Source: Amphiscolops sp. MND2022 (Eukaryota). From it: 64,000 bases of DNA. The DNA lies in NCBI GenBank assembly GCA_964187785.1, contig OZ076409.1, positions 15,130,001 to 15,194,000 of the forward strand. Reading direction: 5' to 3'. A model generated the notes under the pieces. That model did not search any database. It was not told where the DNA came from and worked only from the letters and a program-made list of their open reading frames with translations. A program made the translations under genes and the position numbers. Of the stretch, positions 4,021 through 64,000 are shown piece by piece; the stretch's first letter is position 1, and every line of letters starts with the position of its first letter.

Positions 4021-5378
4021 GTGTTTACTGTTCTCCTCTCTTAGCTATTTTCTGGAAAAACCACTTCGAGAAGGTAAACGTCAGCGGCCATCACTCAGTG
4101 CAAATATCAACAAGCGTATTGGGGATAGTGTCTTTGACAAAATACCGAAACGCGACAGAAAACCGCAGCAGAAAAGCGAGTTAGATGGACGGCTGCGTTC
4201 CATTTGCTTTAAATTAGACGAAGGTAATGTTAAGCCGGGAATCAGAATGACAGTAGGCGACGACAAAATTGCAGATTTCACGGTCGACAACTACGCTGCC
4301 CTTAAGCTGAAACATCCTCAGAGGGAAACTTGCTCTGTTCCGGACCCCACAGATATCGATGGTTCTCCAACCTCGAAGTTTTTTGTCCACAAGGCTCTCA
4401 TGTCCTTCCCCAATGGCTCTAGTGCAGGGTTCGATGGCATTTCGCCCCATGTTTTGAAAGATTTGACTGCCAAGTCGAACGGGCAAACTGGACTGAATTT
4501 TCTCAGAGCCTTAACAAATCTTGTGAATGTGATTCTCGAGAGAAAAGTACCTTTCGAACTTCGGCCGTACTTCTTTGGTGCGAAACTAATTGCGCTAAAA
4601 AAGCCCGATGGAGGATTTCGTCCTATCGCTGTAGGCAATACTTTCCGCCGGCTGTCCGCAAAATGTGCCGGATACCATGTCTTCGAATCACGTCAAACAG
4701 TGTTTACTGTTCTCCTCTCTTAGCTATTTTCTGGAAAAACCACTTCGAGAAGGTAAACGTCAGCGGCCATCACTCAGTGCAAATATCAACAAGCGTATTG
4801 GGGATAGTGTCTTTGACAAAATACCGAAACGCGACAGAAAACCGCAGCAGAAAAGCGAGTTAGATGGACGGCTGCGTTCCATTTGCTTCAAATTAGACGA
4901 AGGTAATGTTAAGCCGGGAATCAGAATGACAGTAGGCGACGACAAAATTGCAGATTTCACGGTCGACAACTACGCTGCCCTTAAGCTGAAACATCCTCAG
5001 AGGGAAACTTGCTCTGTTCCGGACCCCACAGATATCGATGGTTCTCCAACCTCGAAGTTTTTTGTCCACAAGGCTCTCATGTCCTTCCCCAATGGCTCTA
5101 GTGCAGGGTTCGATGGCATTTCGCCCCATGTTTTGAAAGATTTGACTGCCAAGTCGAACGGGCAAACTGGACTGAATTTTCTCAGAGCCTTAACAAATCT
5201 TGTGAATGTGATTCTCGAGAGAAAAGTACCTTTCGAACTTCGGCCGTACTTCTTTGGTGCGAAACTAATTGCGCTAAAAAAGCCCGATGGAGGATTTCGT
5301 CCTATCGCTGTAGGCAATACTTTCCGCCGGCTGTCCGCAAAATGTGCCGGATACCATGTCTTCGAATCACGTCAAACA
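4021..5378 (+). repeat. Direct tandem duplication, 2 x 679 bp, inside the CRE-like RT
   Basis: 4021..4699 equals 4700..5378. The ORF track shows identical peptides 679 bp apart. One substitution was noticed (ttt vs ttc at 4210/4889). Confidence 0.95.
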
Positions 5379-5516
5379 AGATGTGGAAATCGACAAGTAG
5401 GTGAAGGCACCAAAAGGGGCCCTGAATTGGCCTTACCAGTTTTCCGTTGTTTGATAGAAAGCCCAAAGAAAACGTAATTTTAAAAAAATGACTTTGAAAA
5501 CGCTGTCAATTTGATA

Positions 5517-7740: not shown

Positions 7741-7992
7741 GTTTTCTTTTTTATGGTGATTCAGTAATCAAATCTTGTGAAGGGACCCAGCAGCTTGTGA
7801 GACTCAGCCTAATTGTTGTGATAAACTTATTAAATAGTTTCAGACGCAATGCCGACTACTAGAACTGGCTCTCAATCAGACGAAGAGGGGTCCACCCACC
7901 TAATTGAATGTACTGGCAAGGGTCCCGACAAGGGAAAGGGATGCCAATCGTGGGTCCCCACATAGCTCCCGAAAAAGATCCACAAGGGTTTC

Positions 7993-8601
7993 ATGGACCG
8001 CCCCTTCCTATGTGGCTTCTGTGCAGCAGCTGAGGTGGCCGACTTGCAGTCCAAACTTGCCAAAATTACAAAAAAGCCTCAAATCAGCAGAGAGCTGTCC
8101 AGTCTTTTCAATGCCGATTCAAACCAGCAATATGGAAGGCGGGACAATGTCCGCATATTTGGGGTGGAGGAGGCACCAAATGAGGACGTGTATCAGGCTG
8201 TGATCGATGTGGCAGAAAAGGCGGGATGTCAGGTATCCAGAGCGGACATCAGCATCTGCCATAGGGTTCCCAGCAGAAATGTGAAGCCTGGCCAAGGGCG
8301 CCCTATCATTGCAAAATTTGTAAGGAGACAGACCAAAATCGGGCTGATGACCAACAAAAAGAAGCTCAAGGATAGTGAAAATAAATTTTATATCAACGAT
8401 GATCTCACGCTACTACGAGCAAGGCTGGCTAAGGCATTGAGGCAAAGACAAGATGTAACTTCTGTTAACATGATTAACGAAAAAATTGTGGTGTATCAAC
8501 AAAATGAAACAAAAACTGTCTTTGATAGCCTCTTCAAATTATATGAATGGGATCCTGATTTTGTCTACTCTGTATGCAAAAGTAGTCTACATTTTTGTTA
8601 G
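7993..8601 (+). CDS. LINE ORF1 (L1-type RRM/CTD-like; upstream Cys-rich part from ATG ~7849 broken by a TAG)
   Basis: QYGRRDNVRIFGVEE, ISICHRVP, RPIIAKFVRR and FYINDDLT are typical CR1/L2 ORF1 motifs. Confidence 0.8.
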   Translation: MDRPFLCGFCAAAEVADLQSKLAKITKKPQISRELSSLFNADSNQQYGRRDNVRIFGVEEAPNEDVYQAVIDVAEKAGCQVSRADISICHRVPSRNVKPGQGRPIIAKFVRRQTKIGLMTNKKKLKDSENKFYINDDLTLLRARLAKALRQRQDVTSVNMINEKIVVYQQNETKTVFDSLFKLYEWDPDFVYSVCKSSLHFC

Positions 8602-11540
8602 GGGGCCCTCTAGCTTACAAATTGAAACGTAAAAAATCAACGCCTAAACATAAAAACAACTTAAGAGAACAAAGTGTTGAGAATGAATGGATTTTTCATT
8701 TGAACATAAGGTCTATCGACTACAATTTTGAAGAACTAGAAACGCATATAGATACCTTTCGTGAAAACAAACCGTGTATTATTTGCTTGTCCGAAACATG
8801 GATGACTGAATCCTCAGACAAAAATGCCTACGCACTAGAATCTTATGCACCTATGGAATTTGATCCTGGTTCAACAAGAAATGAAGGTGTTGCAGTATAT
8901 GTCCATGAATCGCTGGCATTTGAACTTTTGGAGCTTAACATACAGAAAGATTCTATTCCTGATCTAAACTATATTGGAGTCAATTGTACCGCTAGGAATA
9001 AGGAAAAATTTACCGTTGTATGCTTAAACAATTCGCCTTCCGTAAATAAACATGATTTCTTGGATCAGTTTGAGTTACTTCTTGAGTCTCTTAGTCAAAT
9101 TAAGAACTACTATCTTATAGGCGATATTAATATTGACCTCTTGGAATGCAACCCTGTTGCAGATAGGTATCTTAAATTGTTGGAAATTCATGGTTGCGCC
9201 CAAGGAATTGAAGAACCAACCCGTGTAACGCTTGACTCAGAATCGTTAATTGATCATATAATCCATAATGACCACCAAAGACCTCTGGAATTTGGAGTTA
9301 TCAAGACGTATATTACAGACCATTTTGCAACCTACGTTGATTTGAATATAAGTAAATCTAAATCCATTCGTTCTCAACATTTTATTAAGGATAGATTGTT
9401 TCTCCGGGACGGTAATGCAACAAATCTCTATCTAAATTACTTAAAACATTGCCTGGAACTTGTAGACTTAGGACAGGACATCAATGCATCTACTGAATTG
9501 TTTGCCAATGCAATATCGGAAGCAGTTAATGCTTTCACAGTTGAAAAACAATCAGAACACCAAGATGCCGTAAGACCTTGGTTCACGAAGGAAGTAAAAA
9601 AGGCCTTAATTCGAAGAAATTGTAGTTTCCACAGATACAAGCGCTCTCAAACCTATCAGAACAAGCTACGCTTCACAAGAGCTAGAAATAATGTGCACCA
9701 GCAGCTTCGTAAAAGCAAGCGCGAATACTACGATTCACGGCTGAATGGGCTTATCAATAATCCTAATCGTTTCTACAAAGAACTAAACAAAATCACTGGT
9801 AAAACAACAAAAAATTCCAACTTTGTTATCAAGAATGATAAAAATGAATTGATTACGGATGATATTGATGTGGCCGAATCGTTCAATGAAAAAATTGTTT
9901 CCATCAGTAAAACCTTAGCTGCTTCAATTGATAATGTCCCATTCACGACTCATGGTATAAAAACTAATGAAAAATCACTATTTTTTTATCCAGCTGATGG
10001 CACTGAGATTTCGAGGATTATAAAAAATCTTAAGAACCATAAATCACCTGGTCTAGATGGATTGACTGCAGAAATACTAAAAGTGAGTCACGATGTAATA
10101 GTTGAAAAATTAACTCATCTCGTGAATGAATCGCTAAAAAGTGGAACATTTCCTCAGGTTTTGAAAGCTGCGAGAGTGGTACCAATATAAAAATCCGGCA
10201 AAAAATCTATACGTGAAAATTACAGACCCATATCTGTTTTATCAGTATTGAGCAAAATATTTGAACGTGTTGTGCTTGAACGATTATATAATTTCAAGGA
10301 TAAAAATAAGCTATTATACCCAAGTCAATTTGGATTCAGGTAAAAACTGAGCCCCATCCACGCTCTTTCCGATATTACAGAAATGATTAGGGATAATTCT
10401 AACCTCGATATTTCTTGTATTTTGCTTGATTTACAAAAAGCCTTCGATACAATAAACCATGAATTTCTCTTGTATAAACTCGAAGCATACGGTGTTAGAG
10501 GGGTTTGCTTGGATTAGTTCACATCATATCTAAGTAAACGAAGTCAATGTGTTTCAATTAACGGTAAAGTCTCAAAACCATTACTTATTGACTGCGGCGT
10601 TCCTCAAGGATCTATTCTTGGCCCACTGTTCTTTATAATTTATGTAAATGATTTCCCGAACTCGTGTAAAAACATTATTCCGTTTCTCTTTGCGGATGAT
10701 GCTAATTGCGTTTACGCGAGACCCAAAAATGAGACATCTACATTACAAGATGAAGTTGAACACATTCCTGGATGGATGGCTATGAATAAACTTAGTCAAA
10801 ATATTCCTAAAACTCAATTGGTCCAATTTTTAAACTGCAAAGATGAAAGCATAGTATTGAAAAATACTGAAATAACATGTACTGAATACGTTAAAGCCCT
10901 GTGTATCTTACTTGATAAAAATTTAACTTATGGTTTCCACGTCAAACGAGTACTGAATAAATTAGCTAAACATGTATCCATTATTAACCGTCTTAGGCAT
11001 TTCACCAGTAGTTCGGTAGTGATACGATATTATAAAACATACATGAAACCGATTATGCAATACGGACTCTTGATATATGGGTGCGCAAGGAAGAGTGTAC
11101 TGAATGATATATTTCTTGTTCAGAAAAAAATCCTCCGTATTACATATTTTAAAAACAGACGATCTCCATCGGATGAATTGTTCAAAAGAAGCGAAATTAT
11201 GAATGTTTTTGATCTATACGTATTTGAACTATTAAAATTCGCCGTGCGTTCTAGTAGAGAAAGTCAACTGCATAATATCAAGAGCGTATTTATCCACAAA
11301 AATTCACTTGATTTTACTCGGAGTGTTTCTTCCAATATGTTTTATGTACCTGAAGCACGAACGCAAGTTAGCCGACAATCACTAAAATATCGTGGAACTG
11401 TCTTACTGAATCATCTACTAAAAACGAAGCTATTACATCGCAATTATGAATCTATCGGTGAAAATGAGACTAAAAGACTGATATTAAAAAGTAAAAACAA
11501 AATAAGTAGCGAATGTCTGGCAGACATAGTTTTTTGTTAA
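8595..11540 (+). pseudogene. LINE ORF2 (APE endonuclease + reverse transcriptase) with in-frame stops
   Basis: APE motifs HLNIRS, CLSETW, GDINID, SLIDHI, ITDHF. RT motifs [40 protein letters not shown]. Stops at ~10188 (PI*), ~10341 (GFR*) and ~10516 (LD*F). Confidence 0.9.
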
Positions 11541-13806: not shown

Positions 13807-15446
13807 CAGGGGTCCGCAATTATTAATTGCAATTAAATTGGCATTTAAAATTTTAAAAACCAATTAATTGAAAATTGGACACTTCATGAAACAATTATTG
13901 CAATAATTGGCAAATCAAAACAACAGTTGTCAATGCATAAATTCAGACAAAATTGATGAAAATTTGCCCAAAAATAATGAACTCAAAGAGTCATTCAGTA
14001 GCGTTGACGACTTCGTTGACGAGACTCAGGTCCCACAGTCTCTTGTTCGACATCAGAAACAGCTGCTGCTCCAGATAAATAGGTTGTATCTTCCGTCGCA
14101 AGTCATCATAAGCATATCCAGCCCGGCTGAAAAGTCTCTCCATCAAGTTCGACGTGGGAACCAGAAATCTGCAGTCCAAATATTTATCTGACCGCCGCTC
14201 GCATCTTCTCTTCCTCAGAATTTCCATGGCAAAATCCAAGGGCACTTCATTCTCCTTCCCCATCTCTTCAACTTCTTGGACATGAAGCCGCAATTTTTTC
14301 ACGGCCAAGTTCTCTTGCAAAGTCAGATTCTCATCAGAGTTCAATATTTTTACGACGCCATTCTCGAAGTCTTTGTTTTTCACAATGCTACTATTGACAT
14401 GAATATACTTCTTGCGACCATCGATTGACACCTTTTGATGATTTCATCTAGCAGAAGGCGTGCACTTGCCATATCCATGTCTGAGCGCTGAAGGGCAAGA
14501 GTAACCGATTTCAATTTCACCATCAAAGCATGAACCTTGCTCAAGACAGCTTCGTCCTGTTTGAGGAACTCTTTCACTGCCAATGCAAGTCGGTGGGAAT
14601 GACAACCGATGAGTGGAACCTCGCATTGATCACTCAAGCATTTGTTGGCTTCACAGTTGTCGGCGATAATTGCTACAACGTTGTTCATGGTCTTGCCATA
14701 TTGCGATAAAACGAATGAGATGTATTCGTACATGTCGCTAGCACTCTGACCGGTTTGGTCGCCAATGGGAGAAAACCCCAACAATGCAGTTTCATATCCT
14801 TCATGTTTTCCAGGGTATGATGCCATCACGCCCACAAAATGCGAACTGGCCTCCGTCCATCCGTCAACAATGAGTGCAAATATATCAGGCAGTTCTTTGG
14901 CGATCTCTTTCTCAACCCGATCAGAAACAAGGTGCATGTACTTCTCAAGGGTGTGAACAGAGATTTTATCCAACGACGAATATTTGCGTGTTAGGCTACT
15001 CTCCACAAATGAAAATGGCTTTAGTTCCATACACACCCATTCCAACCATCCGTATACAGTTTCACTCTTTCGACAATGCATAAATCGAAGCGTCTGCTGA
15101 TCCGAAATAGATGTATTGTCGTTTCCATGTTGAGAACGGATATGTTGCATTAGGTTAGACCAGCCTGTACCATCTTTCCTTTTTAGAAGTTTTCCACAGT
15201 GGCACTTGTAAACATCATTCTCTAGTTTAGTGAAATACTTCTTCGTTAAAGCCTTGTAGTCTTTTGGCGCTTCAACTTTAGATGTCATTTCAAACCTGAA
15301 AAAGATAATGCATTGCGCTCAATCAATTATTGCAATAATTGGCTTGTTAATTTCCAATAATTGAAAAATGCAAGATGAGAAAATCAATTAATTGATCAAT
15401 TATAATTGCAATTATTGCTTCATCAATTTTTAATTGCGGACCCCTG
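13807..15446 (-). mobile_element. hAT transposon, internally deleted
   Basis: TIR caggggtccgcaatta / taattgcggacccctg. Perfect 8-bp TSD atggatca. Encodes a transposase. Confidence 0.92.
13991..15288 (-). pseudogene. hAT transposase (BED finger, DDE), frameshifted and internally deleted
   Basis: YKCHCGK...WSNLMQHIRSQH (BED-like), ALIVDGWT, IIADN, LIGCHSHRLALAV (CxxH) and PTSNLMERLFS (C-terminal E). Split into ORFs 14380..15288 and 13991..14431; the RW motif region is missing. Confidence 0.85.
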
Positions 15447-20286: not shown

Positions 20287-22184
20287 AGTGAAAGTATACG
20301 CTGTCATGGGATTTTTGTTTTAAAAAGGCATGTCAGGAATCTATTTTAAAAATGGTTTCAAAAATATTGATTAGAGCAGATGTCAGAAATTTAAAAAAAT
20401 GATTGGTATTTCTTGGAAAGAAACAACCTGGAAGTGGTGCGTTTAATTCGGGTCACTGGTTGCTTTCCTTCCTGTGCCTCGCCGCACCTGGGGTTTGTGT
20501 CGAAGCTCAAGAGCTGTGTCACACTCCTCACCTACGGCTGGGAGGGTGAGTCTTGCGAGTTGATTTTATTACTTACCCAGCGTGCATTTTATATGAAACA
20601 CATTCAATTAGGGAAACAACAGCCTATTTTATAAGTTTCACAGCAATTAGGCTTGTCGTGTCGATGCTATATCGCAAACACTCATTAGAGCAGCAATAAT
20701 TCCGTCAAAAACAACGATTTTTAATAACTTGCAGTCCTGAGGTGTCCTAGAAAAGACCACGCCGAAAAAAGGGGATTTAGTTCGAATTTTTTAATGAACA
20801 GCACTGAAGCACCGCAATTAATGAATTGATGAACAGTCTATGCGAAAGAAAAAATAAAAGGCAAATAAATTTTAGGCCAAAACTTTGGCGCTTCCCAGAA
20901 TAAGATTTTAATATTATTTGTTGCCCGCATGCTTACAAAGTTCAAGAACTAAATATTGTTTCAGCCGAAGTGTGTAGAAGCATGTCATGGATAGCACATA
21001 AAACAAAAGTTTTTCGATAGCTTCATTTTATTGGTATTCATCAGCTGGTCATACTTGATAACATCCGTGAATGACTGATAGTCCTGGTAAAAGAATCTTA
21101 CGTCTATTTTCAAACTCTACCCATAAAAAGTAGATGGTACTTGTCTGGAGTTCCTGGCAGCTCACATAGAGTGCATTCTTCTGCCGGGTATATCATAATT
21201 ACTTTGGGGTGTGCTTCCCAAGAAGCCATGAGTTATCAGAAACTAGTTGAATGCTTGTTAACAAGAAAAATACTAAAGTTTTCAAATTGCGCTGAGGCTA
21301 TGATTTTCAGTTGTTTTGAGTCCTAAAATGAGTTTTTGCATCACTGAGGCCAAGTTTTGAGCTTTTCATTTTCGTCGTGATAACCTCAACTTAGCCAATG
21401 TGCCAAAAATTGGCACATTTATTTTCTGCAAATTCTAAACGCACCAGCTGATTGTATGGTGAAGCAAACTCTTGAATAAGATTTTCAGACAATATTGCAT
21501 AGCTTTCGGCGCCTTTTCACGGAATATTGACGTGTTGTCTCCGAAATCCAGAAAATGAGACAAAAAATTCAAAAAAAAATAACTGCAGATTTTCCATTTT
21601 CCCAGTTTTCGTTTCTGGCCCTTTTAACCCACTGGTGTCAACATTGGGTCAAAGCGGCCTCAGAATATTTTGAAACATGCTGAAAAGCAAGCAGAGACAC
21701 GACGCGTGCAAAGTTTTGGCGCAAAGTCCGGAACCCAGCCCAGCAGTTTAAAAATTGATTTGAAAGCCCTGATGCTCCTCTTTCGAACGCTGTATAAATC
21801 GTTTTTCGGACTTGAATAGTTCAGGAGATATTGCGGTTTAATTTTGAAGCACCCGATTTTCGGATGGAACAAGAATTTTCCTGGCCAACTTAAGGTTAAC
21901 ATCTAGAAAAGATGCAACGTTTTTCATTCGTCTCAATGCGCCAAAAAATTAATGGGATCTTTGAAATCGCGTGACGTGGATGTGAAGGCTTTCTAACGTT
22001 TTGAAAACATGAAAGACTCAATTTCCAAATTTCTTTCGACTAGGCTGAAAATTTTCACCTTGCGGCGTTTGTGACTATATATAAAACCTAGCACCGGTGT
22101 ATAATTGTGTATCCAATAGTTATCTTCAATGCTTCCGGTCCATCAAAATGTATATTTTTGTAATCGCATTGTTTATTATTTCAG

Positions 22185-22815
22185 GACGCTTACAACCTTT
22201 GACTGTGCCACTCAAGTTTTGTTTGAACGCCAAAATTATTCCGTTTTATTGTCTCAACCTGGAGCTGTCAATTATCTTTCGACTACCCCCATCCCAGCTG
22301 TCAGCAAGCAAAACTCAGTAGCTGAAACGCAGCATCACCGGTTCCGTGATTTTTTCCCTCTGAACCCCATGTTGGACTTCAAAAAATCGAATCTGTACGA
22401 TAATTTCGAATCATTTGGTATTGTGGAACCTGATTCCAAATTCCATCCACATACATGTTTCTTATCTACTGATACGATGAAACCACAGCGGTTGCAGTAT
22501 GCTGTTTGCTTGGTAGCTTTTGCAAATGCTCTCACAAAGGCCCATCAAATCCATGGTCACGAAGAAAAAGAACGGATAGAACCAATCGTGGCTCAAGCAG
22601 TTGCAAGTTCTGGGTTTGATCTTCATTTCGCCACATGTCAGCTGAACACTACATGTTTTTCTGACGATGAAGGTGTGAAGAATCAGATATGGGTTACACC
22701 CAACATGCCGTTTTTCAAATCAGTGAGAAGAGAATTGGATCTCGTTGTCGAAGATTACAATGAAGAAGCAGGAAAAGCTTTATATGCCCATTTGTTGAAT
22801 GAAGTTAATTTGTAA
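22185..22815 (+). CDS. MRPL37: Mitochondrial ribosomal protein L37 (mL37), coding exon 2 of 2
   Basis: HPHTCFL...AFANALTKAHQIHG...EPIVAQAVASSG..FATCQLNT....DEGVKNQIW matches the mL37/PDCD9 C-terminal pattern. Acceptor tttcag at 22184; stop TAA ends at 22815. Confidence 0.85.
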
Positions 22816-23675
22816 TCTTGATTTGTTCGGATAGTTTTTGTTTGAGGTTCTGCATTGATAAATTCGTGCAAATTCAGACTTAATTTCTTACCTTTTCCAT
22901 ATCAGCCTTTCATGCCGAATTTCTTTGATGTTACTGTCGTTTAGTGCACCAATCTTAATTTAAATGAATGGTATTCCAATTTAGTTGAACAACGAAGCGG
23001 CGTTGACAGCCAATCAAAAACGACTTAAAACAGAGGCAATACAATTCCAAAAGTCAACTCAATCTCAATTTGAAGTGAATAGAGAATTATTTTAAATGAA
23101 TATTGCTGAATCAAAAACGTAGCTGTTGTTGATCGCAAAAGGCTTGTTTGTCCAGAATGAAGTTCTTTCTCGCTGCTCACTTAGTGATATTATTTCACTC
23201 AATGTGGAAATTTAAAGCAACGCTATGGTTAGGATGCAACTCAATTTTATTAGTCGATTCACTTGATGTGTAAAGATGTTTCATTTAAAGTAAAATTGGT
23301 GTAATAAGCATTGAAGCGAACGAGAAAAACGGACTTTGTGTTTGACAGAATCATAATTGGTTCAGAAATAAGTCATTTGTGGTCACGGATTGAGAAACTC
23401 ACGTTTAGCATCGAAATGGTAAAGTCTAAAATTTTCTTGATTGATAAACTTCGAAAATATGTATTACTAATAGATCTAGAATGAATCCTTTCTAAATCTT
23501 GGCCAAATTTGAACTGAAGTGAGAAATTGGAGCTATGATTCAATGAGTTTTACCTTAGCTTCTACTGCAAAATCATTTTGGGATATTTGATTTATCACTT
23601 TTTCAGATTTTAAACGATTGTTAGAAACCAACTAGCTTGCTGAAAATCGAGTCCTGCAGAGAAACGTTTGGCAAA

Positions 23676-26036
23676 ATGTTGACGAACGGTGCAAGAATAA
23701 GAATCGAGCGAATGGTTCGCAATGATAATTTACAAAAGACGAATGTGCAACATGGGTGTGATACGATCCTGGTGGCTGCGGATGAATATTCTCTGATTGT
23801 CCACAGCGAACACCCTCCTAAACTCTGTCCCAAAGCTGCATCCGGGGCAACGTGTAGTGCAACGCAGAAACATGGGAGCTGTGTTGCGTCCGCTCCTAAA
23901 ACTGCCTCTAGGCTCTGTAAGTCAAAGAGTAATTGCTCGCTGGTACCTCCTAGTAGCATAAAGCAATCTGTACTCACAAGTCAAGAAGTAGAAGACCGCG
24001 TCAAGTTTTCTATTTTGTCCTCTGACCAGATTCAGAAGTGTTTAGTATTCAACAGCAAAGACGTTTTAACAGTAGGAGGCAATGATGTTACTTGCGTAGG
24101 GTGTAGAAAAGGGGTGGAGACTTTACTGGACAGCATGAAAAACTTTCCTTTAGCCTGTTTCAGCTGTTTCGAATGTCTCGGGGGAGGCAAGATCAGAATG
24201 AAACCCGGAAGTTTGAAATTCTCAGACAGCTTATATCACAACCTTGCAGTCAGTAAATATCGAATCAAAGAGATATACGACTCAATACCTCGAAGAAATA
24301 AAACGAGATGTGTCTACCATTCCGTTAATCATGACATGGGTGGTGCTAAAGAGGCAGCGGTTCAGTGGAAAGTTTTGTGGGACAATACTTCTCCAGAATG
24401 TCGAAAAGACATCTTGAAAATATCTTACGAAGAACTCAAAAACAGCCACGAAGTGTATGTAAAGAAACACCGGTTCTGCGAAGATTGTCAGGATCACCTT
24501 ATGCATGCATTCAGACTCCTGTTCTACCTTGAAGACTACTCTGAGTTTGAGGACTTTGATCCTGAAATTTACGATTGTCTGACGGTGGAGCAATGCGCAG
24601 CTACTGGCGAGAAGTTCATCTGTGTTCCGGCCGACCTTGACGTGCTCGCAGAAATGATGGATCGTCTGAAGAACCAATTAGATACCAACAATCCCAATGA
24701 AGAACGCCATGCAAGGTCCTTGGATGTTGCCCAGAAGGAGATGGTTCTATGTATTGCAATGTTTATATACAAACGAATCCAGTCAATTGTCATGCGATTT
24801 TCGGCCTTTATCACTTGTGTGGAGCTGCTTCCGCATCTCATTTATTTGACCTTTAGGAAGAAGTTAGAAGAAGCAGTTGAAGACATCGAAGGTCAAATAA
24901 GGATAGAGAAAACTCTTCACGAAATTGCTATGGTTGATGCGAGGTTAGAAGCGCAGAAAGAAAGGAAAAGAGAAAAGAAACGGAATAAGAAAAACCGAAA
25001 CAAGGGTGGCAATCAACTGAAGGAAACAGAAGACTCAGAGCCCCAAGAGAACTTTCAATTGGAAATGTTTCTCTCGGGAGGAACAAAGTCAAGTACAGTC
25101 GTGGGTAAATCAATTAGCGATAACGCATGTATAATTAATCCTAAAACTGACGACACATGTCGCTCTGCTCGCAGTCAGAACCCAGAGACTGCAAAGAGCA
25201 GAGGTTGCAGCACTTCTCCCTATGGCAACTGCTCAGATGGTGGGTACTCCACTGGGGAGAGTGCCAGTCCTCGCACTTGTGGAGCTGCCAATGGCAATCC
25301 TGCCAACTCGAGGAGAAAATCGAATAAAAGCAGTTCGAGTAGCAGTGAATTGTCTTCGAAAAGTGCCACGTCTCCCAGTAATCCGTCAATGTCACCCACC
25401 AGTAGCACATCCCCTGTGAGGACCTCTGTGAATAGTGATAGTAGTAGGAAAAAGGAGAGACTTCGTCCTGACAATAAGACTCAGACAAAAGGCCAAGTTA
25501 TTTCAAGCAAGAAATGCACAAAAACTAGCAATTCCATTCAGAACCAGCCTGGTATGCCCACCAGCAAAAAAGGTCAGAGAAAGGGTGAGGAGAAGAATCA
25601 AGCAAATGTTCGTAAAAGCAAAGAAGGATCCGAGCGAATAGCTTCGAAAGATGAAACGTTGAGTTTGGCTCTCAGCTCGAAGAAGGAAAAGGGTACCACC
25701 GTCTGTAGCAACAATCAGTCATCGAAGACGAAAGGTAACTGTAAACACCAACATGTGTGCTTGTTAGATTATGGATGTTTCGAAGATAGCTGTAACAGTC
25801 AGAAAGTTGCTGATTCAAAAAGACAGTCTGTTGCCAAAAGTTCAACTTCTGTCAAAGTGAGAGCCGCCAACCCTAACGTGGAGACATCGGGCAGTTCTTC
25901 AAATTTCCTAACCGCGGACGAGATAGCGGAGTTCAAGAAGCAACATGGTGACTATTTGAAAAATCGCGACATCATACGGGCGAAAGTAAAGACCCGGTTG
26001 GAGCATAAATTGGAAGTTGGTGCATTAGTGTGTTGA
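23676..26036 (+). CDS. GGNBP2: Gametogenetin-binding protein 2 homolog (single coding ORF, ~786 aa from first ATG)
   Basis: TCVGCRKGVE, RCVYHS, KKHRFCEDC, ERHARSLDVAQKEMVLCIAMFIYKRIQ, a lysine-rich KERKREKKRNKK tract and a C-terminal LTADEIAEFK...R motif. The start codon is uncertain; an acceptor-like tttttcag lies at ~23607. Confidence 0.88.
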   Translation: MLTNGARIRIERMVRNDNLQKTNVQHGCDTILVAADEYSLIVHSEHPPKLCPKAASGATCSATQKHGSCVASAPKTASRLCKSKSNCSLVPPSSIKQSVLTSQEVEDRVKFSILSSDQIQKCLVFNSKDVLTVGGNDVTCVGCRKGVETLLDSMKNFPLACFSCFECLGGGKIRMKPGSLKFSDSLYHNLAVSKYRIKEIYDSIPRRNKTRCVYHSVNHDMGGAKEAAVQWKVLWDNTSPECRKDILKISYEELKNSHEVYVKKHRFCEDCQDHLMHAFRLLFYLEDYSEFEDFDPEIYDCLTVEQCAATGEKFICVPADLDVLAEMMDRLKNQLDTNNPNEERHARSLDVAQKEMVLCIAMFIYKRIQSIVMRFSAFITCVELLPHLIYLTFRKKLEEAVEDIEGQIRIEKTLHEIAMVDARLEAQKERKREKKRNKKNRNKGGNQLKETEDSEPQENFQLEMFLSGGTKSSTVVGKSISDNACIINPKTDDTCRSARSQNPETAKSRGCSTSPYGNCSDGGYSTGESASPRTCGAANGNPANSRRKSNKSSSSSSELSSKSATSPSNPSMSPTSSTSPVRTSVNSDSSRKKERLRPDNKTQTKGQVISSKKCTKTSNSIQNQPGMPTSKKGQRKGEEKNQANVRKSKEGSERIASKDETLSLALSSKKEKGTTVCSNNQSSKTKGNCKHQHVCLLDYGCFEDSCNSQKVADSKRQSVAKSSTSVKVRAANPNVETSGSSSNFLTADEIAEFKKQHGDYLKNRDIIRAKVKTRLEHKLEVGALVC

Positions 26037-40271: not shown

Positions 40272-43200
40272 TGAAAAACTGTAATATATCCATTGGATAA
40301 TTATTACATCTAGAAACACATAAACATTATATATTGTCACAATCACACTCTAATTCATTTGTTTAGCTATAGATGAATCTATGGCGTCAGACAGCACATG
40401 TATAATGAACAAACAAATTGGCAGTAGATAGTTCACCTATATTGGCGCGAGTTGCAGAGGTAGTGATTGAGAGCAATTGAATTGCAGGCGTACATGTAAG
40501 GACATGTAGTACCTGTCACGTGATACGCCAATCATCTACGTGGTCGTAGGTGTGAAATATGAATGAATTACGTCATCCCACAATAATTCAAGCAAATGAT
40601 AGACACTTCTAATTGTTGAAATACTATACAGAGGCACCAAATACATCTCGCAGAATACCAGGAAAATGACTATTGAATGCGCAGGTCTGCAGGACGACTT
40701 CTAGGTAATTTGACACTTTTGTGGCCCGTTTTGTCAAACAATCCGCCAACTGGTAATCAGTTGGAACCCACCTCAGCGATAAAATACCAGACGTAATCAA
40801 GGACTTCAAATAACTTATTTCCACCCGCAGCGTTTTTTCACTGATTTTGCTGTTAGAGACAGCAGCGGCCACTAATGATTTCGAGTCAGATAAACAAATA
40901 ATGGATAATTTCCTCTGTAAAATAGATTCAGTCGTCTTCTGAATAGAAAGTGCGGCATCAATTGCTTCAGTTGCCGCAAGGGTTTCGGCACATAGAGTGC
41001 TTCTTGCGACACGCTTTAATTTGTGGGATCGCCAAGATATTAGTGTTGCCGGAAAAGAGTCTCTCGATGAAAAATCCACAAGAAACACTAAATATCCAGC
41101 CTGCGTTGTTCCATCCGCATTATTGCCCAGTGACGCATCCGCAAAGCATACAAGCTTCCAATTTGCAAAATCGCCAGTCAAATTCCCAGATCGTAGCCTA
41201 CATCCTGACTGACTTCTGAGCTGTCGTACCACTTTGTTCAGAATCAGAATCTCAGATACCGTAAGGGAGGATAGTTTTGACGATACTTCTGCCACACTGT
41301 AAGCAATGAGCGGACTTGTTTGAACAGCTACCCACAGTAGCTGTCCTATGAGAGCCCTAGCATAACCAATGTACTCAAACGGCACCAGTTCGTCTTTGGG
41401 GCGCGATAATAGGTCAGCGACGGGTATTTCTGATAAGCAGTCCAAGTAATCCGTCAATTCGAATCCCGCCCAGTTTTCCTTGAGGGTTCCCATCGTTACT
41501 CCAAGGTATTTGCAAGGAAGATTAGCGGTTTCCTTGACCAAAAACACATTATGTATGTGCTTTATAACAGATTCCTTGAATTTCTGACTACCAGCCCACC
41601 AAATATCGTCAACGTGAATAGTCAAAAAACCGCTTACAACTTGATCTTCATGATGTACAAAAACACATTCGTCGCCATCGGTTTGAGTACATCCTGACTT
41701 GATCAGTTCGGATTTGATTCTCTCAAACCATTTCCGTGGAGCATCTGATAGACCATATACGGCCTTCTTCAATTTCCATATACAGTCGGTTCCGGATTCT
41801 TTTGGAGGCTTCAGAAAGACATCGCGGTTGAGAAAATCTCCTTGTAAAAATGCAGTTTTGATATCCAAAACTCCAGTGAACCAGGTCTTGTTGGCATTGA
41901 GAATTGGCATCAGCGCTCGTACTGAGTCTCTAGAACATGTTGGTGAATCCTTTACCAGTGTTTCGATATCAGCATCCTGGTATCCTTTAGCCACCAGTCT
42001 GGCCTTTTTCAAGCCATCTTTTGATGTACATACCCAGCGCGTCGTTATAACCTTCTGGCCGGTATTTTCGACAACTTCATACACATCAAAACGCAGCCAA
42101 TTCTGCAACTCACTCAGCTTCTCAGCAATAAATTCATCCGATTCATTTGTGACAAAGGTGTTATCCGTGATCAACGCAATCTCTGATTCACTCACAATTT
42201 CAACGCCTTTCGATACATCAATCGATCCCCTCGTGCCCAATAAATCCCCCGGTTTCAAGTACTCAATATTGAACCAATGACAGTGTTTTCCATTTGCTTT
42301 TCCAGCACGACTCAAGACCCGAGCTTCAGCTGTCTCTTCAGCATCTTCGTGATAAAAACGAATCACCTTACCAGGTTTGATATCACTTGCATTTGGCGTA
42401 CTCACTGTAGTCACAACTTCTTCTAGTACAGTCTGTGTCGCAGATTTGTCTCGGGAATCAGACTCGGCGCCATCCTCAAGACACGCTTGATTGTTTTGGC
42501 AGACCAACGAATCCACGTTCGTACTCCCATTGGTAATCTCGCTAGAACTCTCATCTGGATTAGAGGTTTCGGGTGCATCAAGGAAATTTTCACCCGAATC
42601 AATTGGCACTCCGGGACGGTCTCTGGAAGGTTTTTCACTGCGATCGTCATGCTCCAATCGTAAGAAAGGATCTTCTGCTGGTGATCGGCGAACATGAATA
42701 GAATGTGCTCTGTAAACTTGCCCTCCATGTCTGACAATGATTATTTTCCCATCTTGACCAAGTACACGAGCTGGACCAAACCACTTGTCTTTATTTTGTC
42801 GCTTGTAATAAACTGTCTGCCCTGGATGAAAAGGACCCTCATCCGAGATAACCCGGGTTGACAACGCCTTTTTGATCCTTGTGGAAAATTCCAATTCGGC
42901 ATATCTCGATCTAGCCTTTGACAACATTGTCAAATGGTTTGCCACGTATTTCGAAACAGTGACATTCTCCAGGGCTGCCGGTGATGCATTCATGACTGAC
43001 GGCAAAGATGGACTTTTACCATACACGAGTTGGTAAGGCGAGAACCCTTCGTTATTGTGTAACACGTTCTTCGCGAATACTGCCTGTTGGAGGAGAATCT
43101 GGGAATCGATGTCAGAACTATCTTCTGACAACTTTTTGAACATTTCCGTTATAATGCCGTTATGTCTCTCGCAAATTCCATTGGAGAACGGTGACTCGGC

Positions 43201-45128
43201 GGCGGTTGTAATATGCAAAATCCCGAAAATATCACAACAAGATTGCATAGAGTTATTGACGAATTCACCTCCGTTGTCCGTCAGAAGCTGTTCGGGCACC
43301 CCAAAAACGAAGATCCAATACTCTAACAGAAATCTAATGATGGTTTCGGGTTTCTTGTCATATATTATACGACAGACACTAAAACGCGTGAATGAGTCAA
43401 TAATGTGGATATACCACGATGGTGCAGTCGCTTTGGACAATTGGTGTAAATCGATACATACTGTTTGATTGAAGTCACTGCTCATTGGGGCCGACACCTT
43501 GGGTTTACACTTCACACGCCCGTAACGAATACATACTTCACACGAATCTGTAACTTTCTCTACGCATTTTCGCAGACTTCTCTCATCATGACCTGCAGTT
43601 TTAAGAAGACCAATCATTTTTTCAGTCTTGCAATGCCCAAACTGCTTGTGTAACTTGGCTATATTTTCAGTAGTCAGACTGGACATTGCGTACTGGATTT
43701 GATTGTTTGGAACGGCATCAGGAATAATTTGACATGCCAGGTGACCAGTACTCAAAACAGTCAGTTCATGCCAATTTTCTCGTGTTCCCAAAACAAATGA
43801 TTTCTGGTCAAAATCCACACACATTTTTGCTCTTGCCATGCTTTTAACGCTCAATAAAAGAGGGAGACATCCGTCCACAATTTCGCACTCCAAATAGCAA
43901 TCTAGATCTCCTAATTGCACAGGCAGTGACACTGTAAACAGGCACTTGGTCACCTTTCCATCGCCAAAGATGATAGTTGCGCTACTAACTCTCTTCTGCA
44001 CGTTTTTCCGTCTCGCAACGGGCATCATTTTTAGATATTCATAAAACCACTGACTTCCAGCGACTGTACGTGTGCATGCGCAGTCGAATATGCACATTCC
44101 TCTGGATTCAGCAGACAATCCAGCACATGTACTTGCAAACGTCAGATAGATGCTGTCTGTTGCAGGTCCTGATGGATCTGTACATGAATACTCACAGAAC
44201 TCCGCAGTCTCGCTAGGTGCGCTTTTTTTTTGATATTTTCTTCCAGGTTCAGAATTCCCATCGGGGCAATCTCGAGCATAATGGAACCTGGAACCGCAAT
44301 TCCGACACGTTGACACTCTGCCATGTCTATCGGTTGGATTCGTTCCTCTAACATCACTTCCTCGTCGATTTCCGCGACCACTTCGAGGTACCCATGTTCC
44401 TCGATACCTGGATGCCAAAAAAGCAGCATCTGCACCTTCATGGTTCTGATCAAGAGCTGTGAATGCTGGCTCGCATTTCACTTCGCTTGTCCCAGCTTGC
44501 TCTGTGCGATCCTCTCCTTTTGCAGAATAGATTCGTCGTAGCGCTGTTTTCATTTCGGAATATGCCATCTTGGTTGACGTTGCAAGCACCAGCTGCTGTT
44601 CCTTTGTTTCCAAATCTGCACAGTAAAGAAGTTTGCAGGCCAAGATATTATCTGGCATTTTCAATCCACATTTCTCCAGGTTTGCTGCCCGTGTCTCGAA
44701 TTCGATTGTGTAATCGACCATACTTAAGGTTCCTCTTCGTATTTTCTCGAACCTCTCATATGCTTCGTACATCTGGTCACTTTTATCTCGGCCAAACACC
44801 GACTCGAGCTTCTGTAAAACTTTTGTAAAGCCGTCTGCACCTTTGACTTCAGCTTGGTCCAACTTCATAACAACAGAACGTCTATATCCAGATAAGGACA
44901 ATGCAACCGCAGGTCCAATCTGCTCAGGTTTCAAATCCGTCAAACTCGTCCACAGTTCCATTTCAGCCTTCCAGGACTCGAAACTTTGATCATCCTCCCA
45001 TCGCGGTGGGGCTTTATACGATGCTGTCATCCTGCTACCAATGAAAAACTGTAATACTTCAACAGACTATATTAAAAACCCCACCGGACATTACATCTAG
45101 AAACACATAAACATTATATATTGTCACA
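40272..45128 (-). mobile_element. Ty1/Copia LTR retrotransposon, GalEa-like, coding-intact
   Basis: TG...CA terminal repeats 40272..40341 and 45042..45128; 5-bp TSD aaaaa. PBS TGGTAGCAG (initiator tRNA-Met type) at 45032..45040. Domain order is gag-PR-IN-RT-RH. Confidence 0.9.
40624..45030 (-). CDS. Copia gag-pol polyprotein, 1468 aa, uninterrupted
   Basis: Zinc knuckle CRNCGSRFHYARDC; protease IFDCACTRTV; integrase HKQFGH...CEVC, CIDL, TDNGGEF, SNGICER; RT KARLVAKGY, DIKTAFLQG, VYGLSDAPRKW, IHVDD; RNase H FADAS, STLCAET, SDSKSL, QLADCLTK. Confidence 0.95.
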   Translation of the reverse strand: MTASYKAPPRWEDDQSFESWKAEMELWTSLTDLKPEQIGPAVALSLSGYRRSVVMKLDQAEVKGADGFTKVLQKLESVFGRDKSDQMYEAYERFEKIRRGTLSMVDYTIEFETRAANLEKCGLKMPDNILACKLLYCADLETKEQQLVLATSTKMAYSEMKTALRRIYSAKGEDRTEQAGTSEVKCEPAFTALDQNHEGADAAFLASRYRGTWVPRSGRGNRRGSDVRGTNPTDRHGRVSTCRNCGSRFHYARDCPDGNSEPGRKYQKKSAPSETAEFCEYSCTDPSGPATDSIYLTFASTCAGLSAESRGMCIFDCACTRTVAGSQWFYEYLKMMPVARRKNVQKRVSSATIIFGDGKVTKCLFTVSLPVQLGDLDCYLECEIVDGCLPLLLSVKSMARAKMCVDFDQKSFVLGTRENWHELTVLSTGHLACQIIPDAVPNNQIQYAMSSLTTENIAKLHKQFGHCKTEKMIGLLKTAGHDERSLRKCVEKVTDSCEVCIRYGRVKCKPKVSAPMSSDFNQTVCIDLHQLSKATAPSWYIHIIDSFTRFSVCRIIYDKKPETIIRFLLEYWIFVFGVPEQLLTDNGGEFVNNSMQSCCDIFGILHITTAAESPFSNGICERHNGIITEMFKKLSEDSSDIDSQILLQQAVFAKNVLHNNEGFSPYQLVYGKSPSLPSVMNASPAALENVTVSKYVANHLTMLSKARSRYAELEFSTRIKKALSTRVISDEGPFHPGQTVYYKRQNKDKWFGPARVLGQDGKIIIVRHGGQVYRAHSIHVRRSPAEDPFLRLEHDDRSEKPSRDRPGVPIDSGENFLDAPETSNPDESSSEITNGSTNVDSLVCQNNQACLEDGAESDSRDKSATQTVLEEVVTTVSTPNASDIKPGKVIRFYHEDAEETAEARVLSRAGKANGKHCHWFNIEYLKPGDLLGTRGSIDVSKGVEIVSESEIALITDNTFVTNESDEFIAEKLSELQNWLRFDVYEVVENTGQKVITTRWVCTSKDGLKKARLVAKGYQDADIETLVKDSPTCSRDSVRALMPILNANKTWFTGVLDIKTAFLQGDFLNRDVFLKPPKESGTDCIWKLKKAVYGLSDAPRKWFERIKSELIKSGCTQTDGDECVFVHHEDQVVSGFLTIHVDDIWWAGSQKFKESVIKHIHNVFLVKETANLPCKYLGVTMGTLKENWAGFELTDYLDCLSEIPVADLLSRPKDELVPFEYIGYARALIGQLLWVAVQTSPLIAYSVAEVSSKLSSLTVSEILILNKVVRQLRSQSGCRLRSGNLTGDFANWKLVCFADASLGNNADGTTQAGYLVFLVDFSSRDSFPATLISWRSHKLKRVARSTLCAETLAATEAIDAALSIQKTTESILQRKLSIICLSDSKSLVAAAVSNSKISEKTLRVEISYLKSLITSGILSLRWVPTDYQLADCLTKRATKVSNYLEVVLQTCAFNSHFPGILRDVFGASV

Positions 45129-56992: not shown

Positions 56993-57983
56993 GGATGCTC
57001 AAAAATATACTTCTGGAATTTTTTCAATTTTCGGGGAGCGAAATCAGTAACTGTTGATAACCTTTCCTAGGAAACGTTTGTGATTTTGTATATCTTCATA
57101 CGGAATCTATCGTCTTGGTAACTTTGAAAGCTGGCGAAAAAAAAGTTCTATATTGATGTCAGTAACGTTGTATGTTATTTGTTTCCGTCGTCCAAAACCG
57201 TGGTCATTCGAATAGTTCTAAATGCATCAAACGCAGGGTTGGTCTCAACTCAACAACTCAACTTGAATAAAATTAAATTAATCAAGATTGATTAAGATCA
57301 CCCAAAATGAGCTCTTTCTTTGACGTGAATGAGTTGATTCTACGAACTAACACTTTCTGACTTTCGTTCCGAGCTCTGGCAATGTGTTCTCACTAAGCCT
57401 GGTTCAGTGGAAGACTAAAAAGCATTTCAGAGTTTTTTAAAAACAAAAGTTCTTTTCTGGTCCACAACTTTGAGTTTATGTTTGAAAATATTTAGTTTTC
57501 TGCATTCTGATTTTTAATCAATTCAGTCTTGATTATAATCATTTTAATCGGAATGAAATTAATAAAATATTTTAATCCGGCAAAAAGCCAACGCTGACCA
57601 AACAGAGTCTAGATCAGAGTTTTGACTTCGGTAATTAGCGGTAGCTGAGGATTTTTCAGCGATTCAAATTAGCGGTAGCTGATAGAATGTCCAAATTGTG
57701 AAAATATTGAGTATACCCGGAGTTTCAAAATAAATTTCAAAAATTTCCTGCTCTTACCCTGGTAAATCCTACACGGTATAAAAAAATTTCGGTCTGTTTT
57801 TCTTAACAAAACTAATTTAAGTTGCAATTCAATTTTAAAAGATACTTGAAGTCAAGCATTTAATAGTTTTGAAAAACGAAAATTTTAAGCGAAATACCGA
57901 TTCTTACATTAGCGGGTTTAGCGCTTAGCGGAAAAAATTAGCGATGCCAAAGTCTTAATCTAGAGCATCTCTGAAATGTTCAG

Positions 57984-58202
57984 CATTTCCCGAACGAGGC
58001 CAACAGGCTGCTGATCATTCACGGGGCGATCGACGAGAATGTCCACTACAGACACACGGCCTTGTTGGTGAACGCGCTGGTCATGAACTGCAAACCCTTT
58101 TCCCAGATCACGTATCCTATGGAAAGACACGGGCTCAGACACACAGAAGCAAGCGAGCACTTTGAAACTTCTCTCTTACATTTTTTTAACACAAACGCCT
58201 GA
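57984..58202 (+). CDS. DPP9: DPP8/9 exon 12 (catalytic Asp and His, stop)
   Basis: HFPNEANRLLIIHGAIDENVHYRHT...ITYPMERHGLRHTEASEHFETSLLHFFNTNA*. Not in the ORF track. Confidence 0.93.
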   Translation, partial: HFPNEANRLLIIHGAIDENVHYRHTALLVNALVMNCKPFSQITYPMERHGLRHTEASEHFETSLLHFFNTNA

Positions 58203-60965: not shown

Positions 60966-61382
60966 TTAAAGGTGAGCTCTGACTATTTTTCGGTCCTGTA
61001 GAAATGATGAGAGTCTTCTCAATACTTGTAGAAAATACCTGCGGTTTTTTCGACACTGTGCGACTTTTCGAGAAATTATTTGGTCAAAGGGTAACCCCTT
61101 CACTTTCATGAATGTTTCTGGCTTGAAAGAAAAGCGTTTTGTGAGAAAAAAGCTCCCTTTTCGGCACTGAAACTTTTCTCCATACGAGACTATGAAAATT
61201 TGTCTTGATGTTTCCCGCTGGGAAAGAAGTTTTCGAGACTTAAGTATCCCTTCGAGTATTTTGTGGGCCTGAGAATATGATAACGTTTTTACAATAGTGT
61301 CCCTTTGCGTATTTAAAAAACTTGTATCGTTGCTGGCTTGTTTTGATTTCTTCTGTTTTAGTCTAATACGAACAACAACCCC

Positions 61383-61420
61383 TTTAAGGTGATTTGAATA
61401 TATATTCAAATCACCTTAAA
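61383..61420. repeat. Perfect 38-bp spacerless palindrome
   Basis: tttaaggtgatttgaatat|atattcaaatcaccttaaa, centre at 61401/61402. Confidence 0.95.
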
Positions 61421-61728
61421 TGATAGCTCAGTTCGCTTGATTGAGTTTACATTTTGAAAACATTCGGTTATGCCCTATAACACAGGAATTGAGCGGCACA
61501 ATTTCGAGAATTCTTGTCTATTTACAATCGAGATTTTGCGAATTTTTCTTTGAACTCAAAAAAAGTCGCGTATATACGCGACTTTTTTTGAGTTCAAAGA
61601 AAAATTCGCAAAATCTCGATTGTAAATAGACAAGAATTCTCGAAATTGTGCCGCTCAATTCCTGTGTTATAGGGCATAACCGAATGTTTTCAAAATGTAA
61701 ACTCAATCAAGCGAACTGAGCTATCATT
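61419..61728. repeat. Perfect ~310-bp spacerless palindrome
   Basis: Centre gtcgcgtat|atacgcgac at 61573/61574. The ORF track shows the same 62-aa peptide on both strands (61441..61629 +, 61518..61706 -). Confidence 0.95.
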
Positions 61729-62962
61729 GCGCATTTTAGGTTAAATATCAAATCCGGACAAAATTCTGTCTATAGAATAATTTTTGGCAAAGAAAAAATT
61801 CAAACAGCAAGCTTTTGGCTGGCTGGCAATTCCCTTGGCGAGCATTTTTCGTTATGATAACAGGTCAGTCGTTCGTGTGCCAAAGTATTTTGCCTCTGGT
61901 TTTTAGGCACTCTGATTTTTTTGCCTTGAAGTTTTGATTTCGTATTGACTACTATCGACTTTTTCAAAAACCAAAGTAGATTTGGTGGAATCGAGTGAGT
62001 TCAAAATTTGCCAAAAATTTGATGTTAAACGGTCAAACGTTAAAAAGGTTGTGGACAACTTCAGTCTGTGCTACTTCGAAAAAACTTTAATGTAAACGAG
62101 GTGAAATGTTTTCCAAAATTTCCAACTTCTGCTCCGAGATAGTACAGTCTAAAAATTGACCGGATGATTTCCTTACCACAGTACTGTAGCGCTCTCAAGT
62201 ATTGCTGATTCAGATGAAGCATTCAATTGAACGAGACCCAATTCGCAAATTTTGATTTTTGTTTTTTCTATTTGAGCGAAAATTGTATAATTGAAAATGG
62301 TTGCATCGTAAATGTCTTTTTCACTTCCTTTTTTATTCGAGCGTTTCAAGTTTCCGATGCTTTCAGTAAAATTACCTGGTTTTACATTTTTTTCTGTTAA
62401 ATTGAAATTGAAATGAGGTTGTTTCTATCCCGAGTCGAAATTTAATACTATTGCAAATTAATTAAAAGAAAATCTCTGCCCGACAACGCTGCATGAGCCA
62501 TACTTTTTGAAGAAAATTGTTTAGGAAGATATCTTGAACCACAGAAATATTGTTGAGCCTTGAGGCGTCGATATTCGTGACTAGGATGGTTGCGAGTTGA
62601 AACGAAAACATTTCAGATTTGAATTTCCGTGAGAAATTATTTGGTCAAAGGGTAACCCCTTCACTTTCATGAATGTTTCTGGCTTGAAAGAAAAGCGTTT
62701 TGTGAGAATAAAGCTCCCTTTTCGGCACTGAAACTTTTCTCCATACGAGACTATGAAAATTTGTCTAGATGTTTCCCGCTGGGAATGAAGTTTTCGAGAC
62801 TTAAGTATCCCTTCGGGTATTTTGTGGGCCTGAGAATATGATAACGTTTTCACAATAGTGTCCCTTTGCGTATTTAAAAAACTTGTATCGTTGCTGGCTT
62901 GTTTTGATTTCTTCTGTTTTAGTCTAATACGAACAACAACCCCTTTAAGGTGATTTGAATAT

Positions 62963-63663
62963 CCCATGTTGAGCACTCCCTGCGAATCTCTACAGATCTG
63001 CACAGATCCTGACAGATATTTCAGGATTGTTCGAAAATTGAATAGTCATAAATTCAGTTTTCGGAAAAGAAATTAGTCGGTTGGAAAGTGCTCTACGAAA
63101 AAAAAACACGCCTCTTATTTGAAGTTTTAAAAAAGTTTCTGTGCGAATCTGTACAGATCTGTACAAATCCTTGCAGATATTCCAGGATTTGGTGAAAATT
63201 ACCCATACCAATAAATTACTATAACGTTGTTTGTAGTATGCTGTGGCGAGACAGGTCTGCTAAATTGTTAAATTGTGCTATAGCTAGATAGCTCAAAGCT
63301 TGGGTGGAAGTCGAACTTCAACTAGAACGTGTTTCAAAGATTAATTCAGACCAAATTGTGAACAAACATTAAAACGGCGGCAGAATAGTTCAGAACAAAT
63401 TATTTGAGACTTAGCAACTTTGAGATGCATGAACAAGTTTTTTTTTAGATTCAATTTAGTTCAAATGACATTCAACATACCGCACCCCTTGATCAGTATG
63501 ATTAAGAAAATTGTAAGTGAGGGCGCGTTAAAGTCAACAAGAGATTGGGAGTATTCGAAGTTGGACGAGGTGTCCTTACGTAGCAGTGGCACGATCTTTA
63601 CAGATACTCAAGGAAAATTGGCTCACAGATCTTTACAGATTCTGAAGGAAAGCTCAACATGGG
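62963..63663. mobile_element. Non-autonomous DNA transposon, probably CMC/EnSpm-like (CCC...GGG, 2-bp TSD AT)
   Basis: TIR cccatgttgagc / gctcaacatggg, flanked by AT on both sides, with subterminal acagatct repeats. Absent from the paralogous site at 61401/61574. Confidence 0.7.
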
Positions 63664-63710
63664 ATACGCGACTTTTTTTGAGTTCAAAGAAAAATTCGCA
63701 AAATCTCGAT

Positions 63711-64000
63711 CAGTGTTGGCTGAAAAAAAACACCCATGTTTTAAATCACTGTTTTAAACTGTTTTAAATCACTGTTTTAAACTAGATTGATTTTAACAAA
63801 TGTTTTAAATGTTTTTTTTTCTTTCAGGTAGTCATGCCTCAGCGACAAAATTCAGGTCGTAAACGTGATCAGGTATGGAACTATTTCGAAACCTTAGCGA
63901 ATGGCCGAGCCAAATGCAAGGATTGTGCGTTTGACATCGTTCCATTAGTGGAAAGGATGAAACAACATCGACTGATCCATGACGGAAATGAAGATCAAAA
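63711..64000 (+). mobile_element. 5' end of a hAT transposon with a BED-finger transposase start (ATG 63834)
   Basis: Begins cagtgttggc exactly where the duplication match stops; tgttttaaa subterminal repeats; acceptor ctttcag. MPQRQNSGRKRDQVWNYFE...RAKCKDC...RMKQHRLIH is a BED zinc finger and runs off the window. Confidence 0.8.

Follow-up and report, generated by a model that had tools for sequence, protein, structure and literature searches.

Paired palindromes at an emptied CMC transposon site in Amphiscolops sp. are probably the scar of excision through flush flank hairpins

Flank-hairpin chemistry serves antibody gene assembly, and the joints made by RAG carry even palindromes that begin at the border. 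RAG and Transib have CAC ends and a 5-bp target duplication. The footprints of the plant elements Spm and Tam1 have been interpreted with the hairpin model. According to the accessible text of one source, hAT, Transib, RAG and Muta1 all leave hairpins on flanking DNA, which are opened by the host (PMC5499845). Ac scars, as the available part of another source describes them, have their centre on the complement of the base adjoining the element, reach arm lengths of 20 nt in budding yeast and mostly result from microhomology joins (PMC5873905). P additions normally measure 1–2 nt, and 1–7 nt without Artemis, in the accessible portion of PMC2193825. For CMC elements, no publication showing flank hairpins or cleavage chemistry was found in a literature search that covered few of the older plant papers; the available portion of a CMC preprint (10.1101/2025.05.19.654958) contains neither the word "hairpin" nor the word "footprint".

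The locus described here lies in a window of 64,000 nt, the whole stretch of DNA analysed (G000:C1:15130001-15194000, from a 1.07-Gb genome), in which a tandem duplication presents an element-less and an element-filled copy of the same site. Its features, in window coordinates, are as follows.

61070..62630, + strand: unit 1, the element-less, scarred copy of the tandem duplication
61400..61401, + strand: left copy of the AT target duplication, retained, with the centre of the 19-arm palindrome directly after it
61402..61420, + strand: left addition (putative P nucleotides), the reverse complement of the final 19 nt of the left flank
61419..61420, + strand: AA, 2-nt microhomology common to both additions
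61419..61573, + strand: right addition, a backward copy of the opening 155 nt of the right flank of unit 1 itself
61419..61728, no strand: 310-bp perfect spacerless palindrome, at this locus only
61574..61575, + strand: right copy of the AT target duplication, retained, with the centre of the 155-arm palindrome directly before it
62631..64000, + strand: unit 2, the filled copy, extending beyond the window to ~66,177
62963..63663, + strand: non-autonomous CMC element, 701 bp, with ends CCCATGTTGAGC...GCTCAACATGGG and the AT duplication at 62961-62962 and 63664-63665
63228..63562, − strand: piece of an LTR retroelement (one LTR and the adjoining inner end) that replaces the element's middle
63711..64000, + strand: start of a hAT-like insert (whole 63711-65157, 1,447 bp) with ends CAGTGTTGG...CCAACACTG, in unit 2 only

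Units 1 and 2 meet at a 4-nt GAGA microhomology. The first-pass annotation described them as filled and excised alleles that differ at one site. Filled and emptied copies do lie next to each other, but they are tandem paralogues rather than demonstrated alleles, and their differences are not confined to one site: the unit comparison gave 12 substitutions and 3 small indels over ~1,390 bp, to which are added the hAT-like insert of unit 2 and the scar/element site itself. False tandem placement of two haplotypes would still leave the scar real. The hAT-like insert, 47 bp from the CMC element, is internally deleted, with an 8-bp duplication (ATCTCGAT at 63703-63710), a weak BED finger match (E 0.01) and a broken frame. 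Local tandem duplications of 1.3–33 kb with transposon copies are frequent in the assembly (L065/L066, L067/L068, L071/L072, L084/L085 and L134).

The scar lies ~3.2 kb downstream of the last coding exon (57975-58199) of a multi-exon gene on the + strand (32349-58199), which we take from motifs such as GWSYGG to be DPP8/9-like. Further long host-gene frames occur at 22120-22815 (−) and 23625-26036 (+). Among named sequences, one host protein comes closest to a protein of the acoel Convolutriloba macropyga, with 64% identity, so that the host is probably an acoel as well. Judging by motifs, the window presumably also holds a LINE-like element (7966-11540), an LTR retroelement with a 1,480-aa open frame (40624-45066), a hAT-like transposase in pieces (13991-15318) and a tandemly duplicated reverse-transcriptase fragment (3926-5477).

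The scar in unit 1 consists of two perfect, spacerless palindromes, one centred at 61401|61402 (arm 19, span 61383-61420) and the other at 61573|61574 (arm 155, span 61419-61728); the third-longest spacerless palindrome in the 64-kb window has an arm of 9. Both centres coincide exactly with the two element borders seen in unit 2, and unit 1 contains zero element bases between 61401 and 61574. The two additions together amount to 172 nt, with their overlap at the AA. On recheck, everything that the first-pass annotation had recorded of this anatomy was upheld: the coordinates, the arms of 19 and 155, the border-exact centres, the AA overlap and the AT kept on both sides. The 155-nt arm carries unit 1's own state at 61680, 61682 and 61685, where unit 2 differs, and all three of these differences occur in both arms, which are 100% identical. 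Because the three unit differences are common to both arms, a scar younger than the duplication fits, with the limit that the direction of the changes cannot be polarised.

A search with the 155-nt arm, which skips common words, gave 4 matches, all within the two units (all 3 of 3 candidates scored). Since the arm is found at a single locus, the reading of the 310-bp palindrome as a multi-copy palindromic MITE, raised earlier as an alternative, fails. The predicted RNA fold of 61383-61728 has an energy of −287 kcal/mol, which is trivial for a perfect repeat; if transcribed, the site would form a 155-bp stem. An Rfam search of the site gave zero matches, and the scar is most likely neutral.

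The element that fills unit 2 belongs to a family whose copies mostly measure ~810 bp, and a 3,862-bp sibling of the window element retains more of the LTR retroelement. The family has terminal inverted repeats of 12 bp, CCC...GGG, and its exact ends occur at least 632 times on the left and at least 790 times on the right, with 0 in the controls. The target duplication is 2 bp of free sequence in 41 of 46 whole copies (a 3-bp match occurs in two copies, a 4-bp match in none); these 2-bp duplications fall into 9 dinucleotide classes, with TA in 4 of the 41. A Tc1/mariner reading, TA|TCCC...GGGA|TA, fits one of the 46 copies, the duplication being variable rather than a fixed TA. The footprint argues in the same direction: mariner scars keep element bases, according to the available part of PMC4561436, whereas the scar is free of element-end bases from 61401 to 61574. 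The mariner alternative that the first-pass annotation had set beside its own reading is thus answered by the CCC ends, the variable 2-bp duplication and a CMC-type partner transposase. By motifs, duplication and the Pfam matches of this partner, the family is placed as a non-autonomous CMC family, putatively of Mirage/EnSpm type.

The partner was located by intersecting DUF1258 matches with family end positions. It spans 15,347 bp (G000:C2:18564711-18580057), has the same 12-bp ends as the small copies and an AA duplication, and matches the ends of the small copies over ~165 nt at 93% and over 240 nt at 81–84%. Its open frame of 1,099 aa contains SET, DUF1258 (E 3.6e-10, over the cut-off) and Transposase_21 (E 4e-4, under the cut-off) matches; DUF1258 we take to denote the Mirage family. 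The motifs NTDG, CDMAA, GCPYC, DPLH, HAIRH and FESAN, aligned with homologues, give the pattern D, D, CxxC, DxxH, H(3)H, E, and the accessible text of PMC12730594 lists EnSpm, Mirage, Chapaev, Transib and RAG1 as sharing C(2)C and H(3-4)H motifs. The search yielded a single copy with an open frame; among the 86 of 367 candidates scored, the next best are 85% and 60% alike over parts and contain stops. Six long end pairs and one sibling gave no match to the CMC frames compared, their long frames looking retroelement-like, and none of 30 Transposase_21 loci has the family's ends. For the autonomous partner that the first-pass annotation had wished to see found and classified by its transposase, there is now a likely candidate, a same-ended, CMC-type element with an open DDE frame. 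The 15.3-kb element likely mobilises the small copies of the family, the tie between them being the shared ends only. A sister family with the same transposase type (30% identical) has ends CCCAGGTT(A/G)ACC and 2-bp duplications in both of the two copies with both ends read.

The structural model of the partner core (pLDDT 90.5) has RAG1 as its best structural match (Z 20.0, rmsd 4.8, 450 aligned; Foldseek E 2.6e-10), with lower Z for amphioxus RAG-like (18.9), P element (14.3), Transib (12.1) and Hermes (7.6); a model of the sister family's transposase ranks the structural matches identically. Taken alone, the fold points to kinship and not to chemistry: P-element transposase, which is not known to make a hairpin, outscores Transib. 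The partner additionally carries a repeated 410-aa frame without a Pfam match, a GDSL-like frame and a RING and zf-UBP fragment, probably captured host sequence. SET is fused to transposase in at least two CMC families here and in 5 of 49 database relatives, and the genome is rich in CMC families that have long open frames and nearly identical copies (77 DUF1258 matches).

Turning to palindromes in the genome at large, 899,663 non-redundant bases hold 9 spacerless examples with arms of at least 14, and five block shuffles each gave 0. This sample was mostly picked around repeats; the 200 kb taken at round positions hold one such palindrome, L182. Long palindromes here have more than one origin: of the 6 other sites with arms of at least 14, most are not scars of the window type. 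Those of L069 and L082 are built into repeats, and at L182 a native palindrome of arm 13, at the end of a repeat, has been lengthened by templated extension. L017 falls within a repeat that has lost its other side: its perfect arm-54 palindrome (L017:2911-3018, G000:C1:92821757) is centred on TA in a high-copy repeat with the upstream part missing. L019 fits the scar pattern, with AG on both sides, and no homologue of it was found. Palindromes with spacers were also seen, namely an arm of 36 around a single base, which is hAT-type geometry (L044:393-466, G000:C4:29176461), and an arm of 26 around 4 bases (L187:7289-7345).

A scar survey, conducted as a reduced comparison of palindromes with arms of at least 6 against spanning homologues (the window scar is too long for it), narrowed 583 palindromes to 410 with a spanning homologue, 39 insertions and finally 7 insertions explained by flank copies. 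One of these 7 is a clean two-sided scar, and at least three are changes in the 10-bp repeats that belong to the element itself; the mirror control yielded 3 of 16, every one of them within a single simple repeat. The clean scar (G000:C1:14465921) lies inside another small-element copy and has TA on both flanks with backward copies of 14 and 4 nt. This 20-nt insertion in a repeat (18 nt of additions plus TA) has the same build as the window scar, and 13 homologous hits show the site as plain CTTACG-TA-GCAGTG. We read it as a second, homologue-checked scar of the same build, with TA being also mariner's target. The search for further palindromes that the first-pass annotation had suggested yields, in the sequence covered, one more back-to-back scar with TA, most other long palindromes (arm at least 14) being of other origin.

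A further copy, G000:C1:11989234-11990040, is the sole copy of 46 with flanks mismatched at both bases: AA is present on one side and absent on the other, and an arm-50 palindrome, centred before AA, lies 60 bp away. Here one end was likely cut, hairpinned and rejoined to the element, an account that leaves 10 nt of filler unexplained. The feature typical of RAG and Transib—even palindromes flush with the border and without element bases—is thus found on both sides at the window site and at C1:14465921, and on one side at C1:11990100. Among 22 listed homologous sites without the element, 3 represent the window scar, 7 have a native ATATGGT|ACCATA word in common (arms 1–6) and 12 have arms of 0–2.

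We propose that the scar was probably produced by excision of the CMC transposon from unit 1 through RAG-type flush flank hairpins that were resolved far from the tip. In this scheme, the element would have inserted, creating the AT duplication, before the tandem duplication took place. The partner transposase would then have cut the element out of unit 1, nicking each end and joining the top to the bottom strand of the flank with no base lost. The host would have resolved the resulting hairpins 19 and 155 nt from their tips, either through a distant nick and subsequent unrolling or through a polymerase that copied its way round the tip, two routes between which the sequence cannot discriminate. 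The unrolled ends would finally have been joined at AA and the product inherited. Hairpin-type excision by a CMC-like transposase, as the first-pass annotation had suggested, is supported by the assignment of the family to CMC, the flush centres and the missing element bases; the hairpin step itself we infer. The unrolling of 155 bp would be far beyond the measured range, because P additions are 1–2 nt long, or 1–7 nt without Artemis.

The best-surviving alternative, which we nevertheless hold to be improbable, is that excision left open blunt ends and that the palindromes come from repair, either by head-to-head ligation of like sister-chromatid ends (left to left, right to right), rebreakage and AA joining, or by a polymerase strand switch at each end. 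Fusion of flush sister ends would likewise yield even centres, inverted duplications arising by fold-back at breaks are documented in the available text of PMC10622511, and the templated extension of a native palindrome at L182 comes from the same genome. Snap-back priming from natural inverted repeats, however, reproduces neither junction: when short inverted repeats close to the cut served as primers, with as many as 6 nt trimmed and as many as 4 element bases tolerated, 0 of 42 products listed matched the left junction and 0 of 4 the right. Flush-hairpin excision is favoured because the centres are even and flush and because snap-back gives neither junction. Sister fusion, for its part, requires cuts in both chromatids, two flush fusions and two subsequent breaks with rejoining, and the whole series would have to happen again at C1:14465921, there giving arms of 14 and 4; moreover, the nearest solved relatives of the transposase are hairpin formers.

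Far less credible is a sequence of events in which a small tandem duplication generated a flank-element-segment-element-flank arrangement, both elements were excised and the 172-bp segment was reinserted inverted. By construction the product is identical to the letter, and tandem duplications with family copies are common here (L065/66, L067/68, L071/72, L084/85). This course nevertheless calls for one more duplication, two excisions, an inversion and two joins that neither lose nor add sequence, and it accounts for neither the one-ended case nor the 18-nt insert at C1:14465921. An equally slim chance attaches to the palindromes being a fold-back read or assembly artefact, which would give arms that are 100% identical, as observed; nothing about an artefact, however, would make it turn precisely where an absent element has its two borders and keep both ATs, and the same build recurs as a 20-nt insertion in a repeat at C1:14465921. 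Least plausible of all is that unit 1 never held the element—it contains no element bases, and excision is deduced from its paralogue—and that a failed insertion or unrelated break at the same AT made the inverted copies, a second independent hit that is improbable because both ATs demand the family's 2-bp stagger at the very dinucleotide used in unit 2.

For flush flank hairpins, our preferred reading, the repair genes of the host are of interest. Ku and DNA-PKcs are present in the genome, and a DRMBL profile search found one gene, which is SNM1A-like. A paralogue search with a full-length relative of this gene found none, and Lactamase_B_2 misses even SNM1A; the searches are thus too insensitive for an absence of Artemis to be called. 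A broader hypothesis, which we offer as speculative and rather unlikely, is that CMC transposases cut like RAG1 in an animal that lacks the opening of hairpins at the tip (Artemis), and that CMC excision would accordingly make long germline palindromes routinely. If true, this would be a continuing supply of hairpin DNA and double-stranded RNA, and the animal would serve as a natural model for how V(D)J-type breaks are mended when Artemis is missing. CMC cutting also bears on the origin of RAG, since RAG is a structural neighbour. At the locus itself, having the filled and the emptied copy next to each other locates the cut to the single base and speaks for flush flank hairpins; one open-frame partner for in vitro study is available from this genome as well. 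An animal germline may acquire a 310-bp perfect palindrome from a single excision, which is possibly a route to hairpin RNAs and fragile sites.

Compared with the CMC supergroup to which we assign it, the family is alike in the DDE frame of its partner, with CxxC and H(3)H and with DUF1258 and Transposase_21 matches, and unlike in that the partner has a SET domain fused to the transposase. Its 2-bp duplication falls inside the 2–5 bp range of the group, whereas its ends are CCC...GGG and most of the clade has CA...TG, as far as the accessible text of PMC12730594 goes. Fold-back inverted duplications at double-strand breaks share with the scar an inverted flank copy that starts near the break, but they are primed at natural inverted repeats of 3–15 bp and have a dicentric outcome, according to the available part of PMC10622511. 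No such repeat explains either centre here, and both flanks were rejoined locally. The MULE Muta1 resembles the proposed course in forming a flank hairpin in vitro that the transposase does not open (PMC5499845, accessible text). It differs in its long duplications and mostly precise excision, and it belongs to a different superfamily.

With the hAT elements Ac/Ds, Tam3 and Hermes, the scar shares palindromic additions copied from the flanks and microhomology joining, and the Ac arms of up to 20 nt in yeast mean that long inverted duplications made by excision have precedent (both from the available part of PMC5873905). A hAT-type footprint does not describe the window site, which combines even, flush centres with a duplication of 2 bp instead of 8 bp. 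For length, the precedent is Antirrhinum niv-525, in which Tam3 excision reportedly left a ~200-bp inverted duplication. A further close comparison is with the V(D)J coding joints of RAG1/2 and with Transib excision, where flank hairpin chemistry is described in the accessible portion of PMC5499845; here that chemistry is putative. C(2)C and H(3-4)H motifs are shared between the partner and RAG1/Transib, as the available text of PMC12730594 has it, and the modelled fold of the partner is nearest RAG1. Unlike RAG and Transib, the family has CCC ends and a 2-bp duplication, the event is germline, the additions measure 19 and 155 nt, and identity to RAG1 is 11–13%. Flank-hairpin scars are already known for hAT, Transib, MULE and RAG; what this case newly adds is its link with an identified CMC family, together with the length of its arms.
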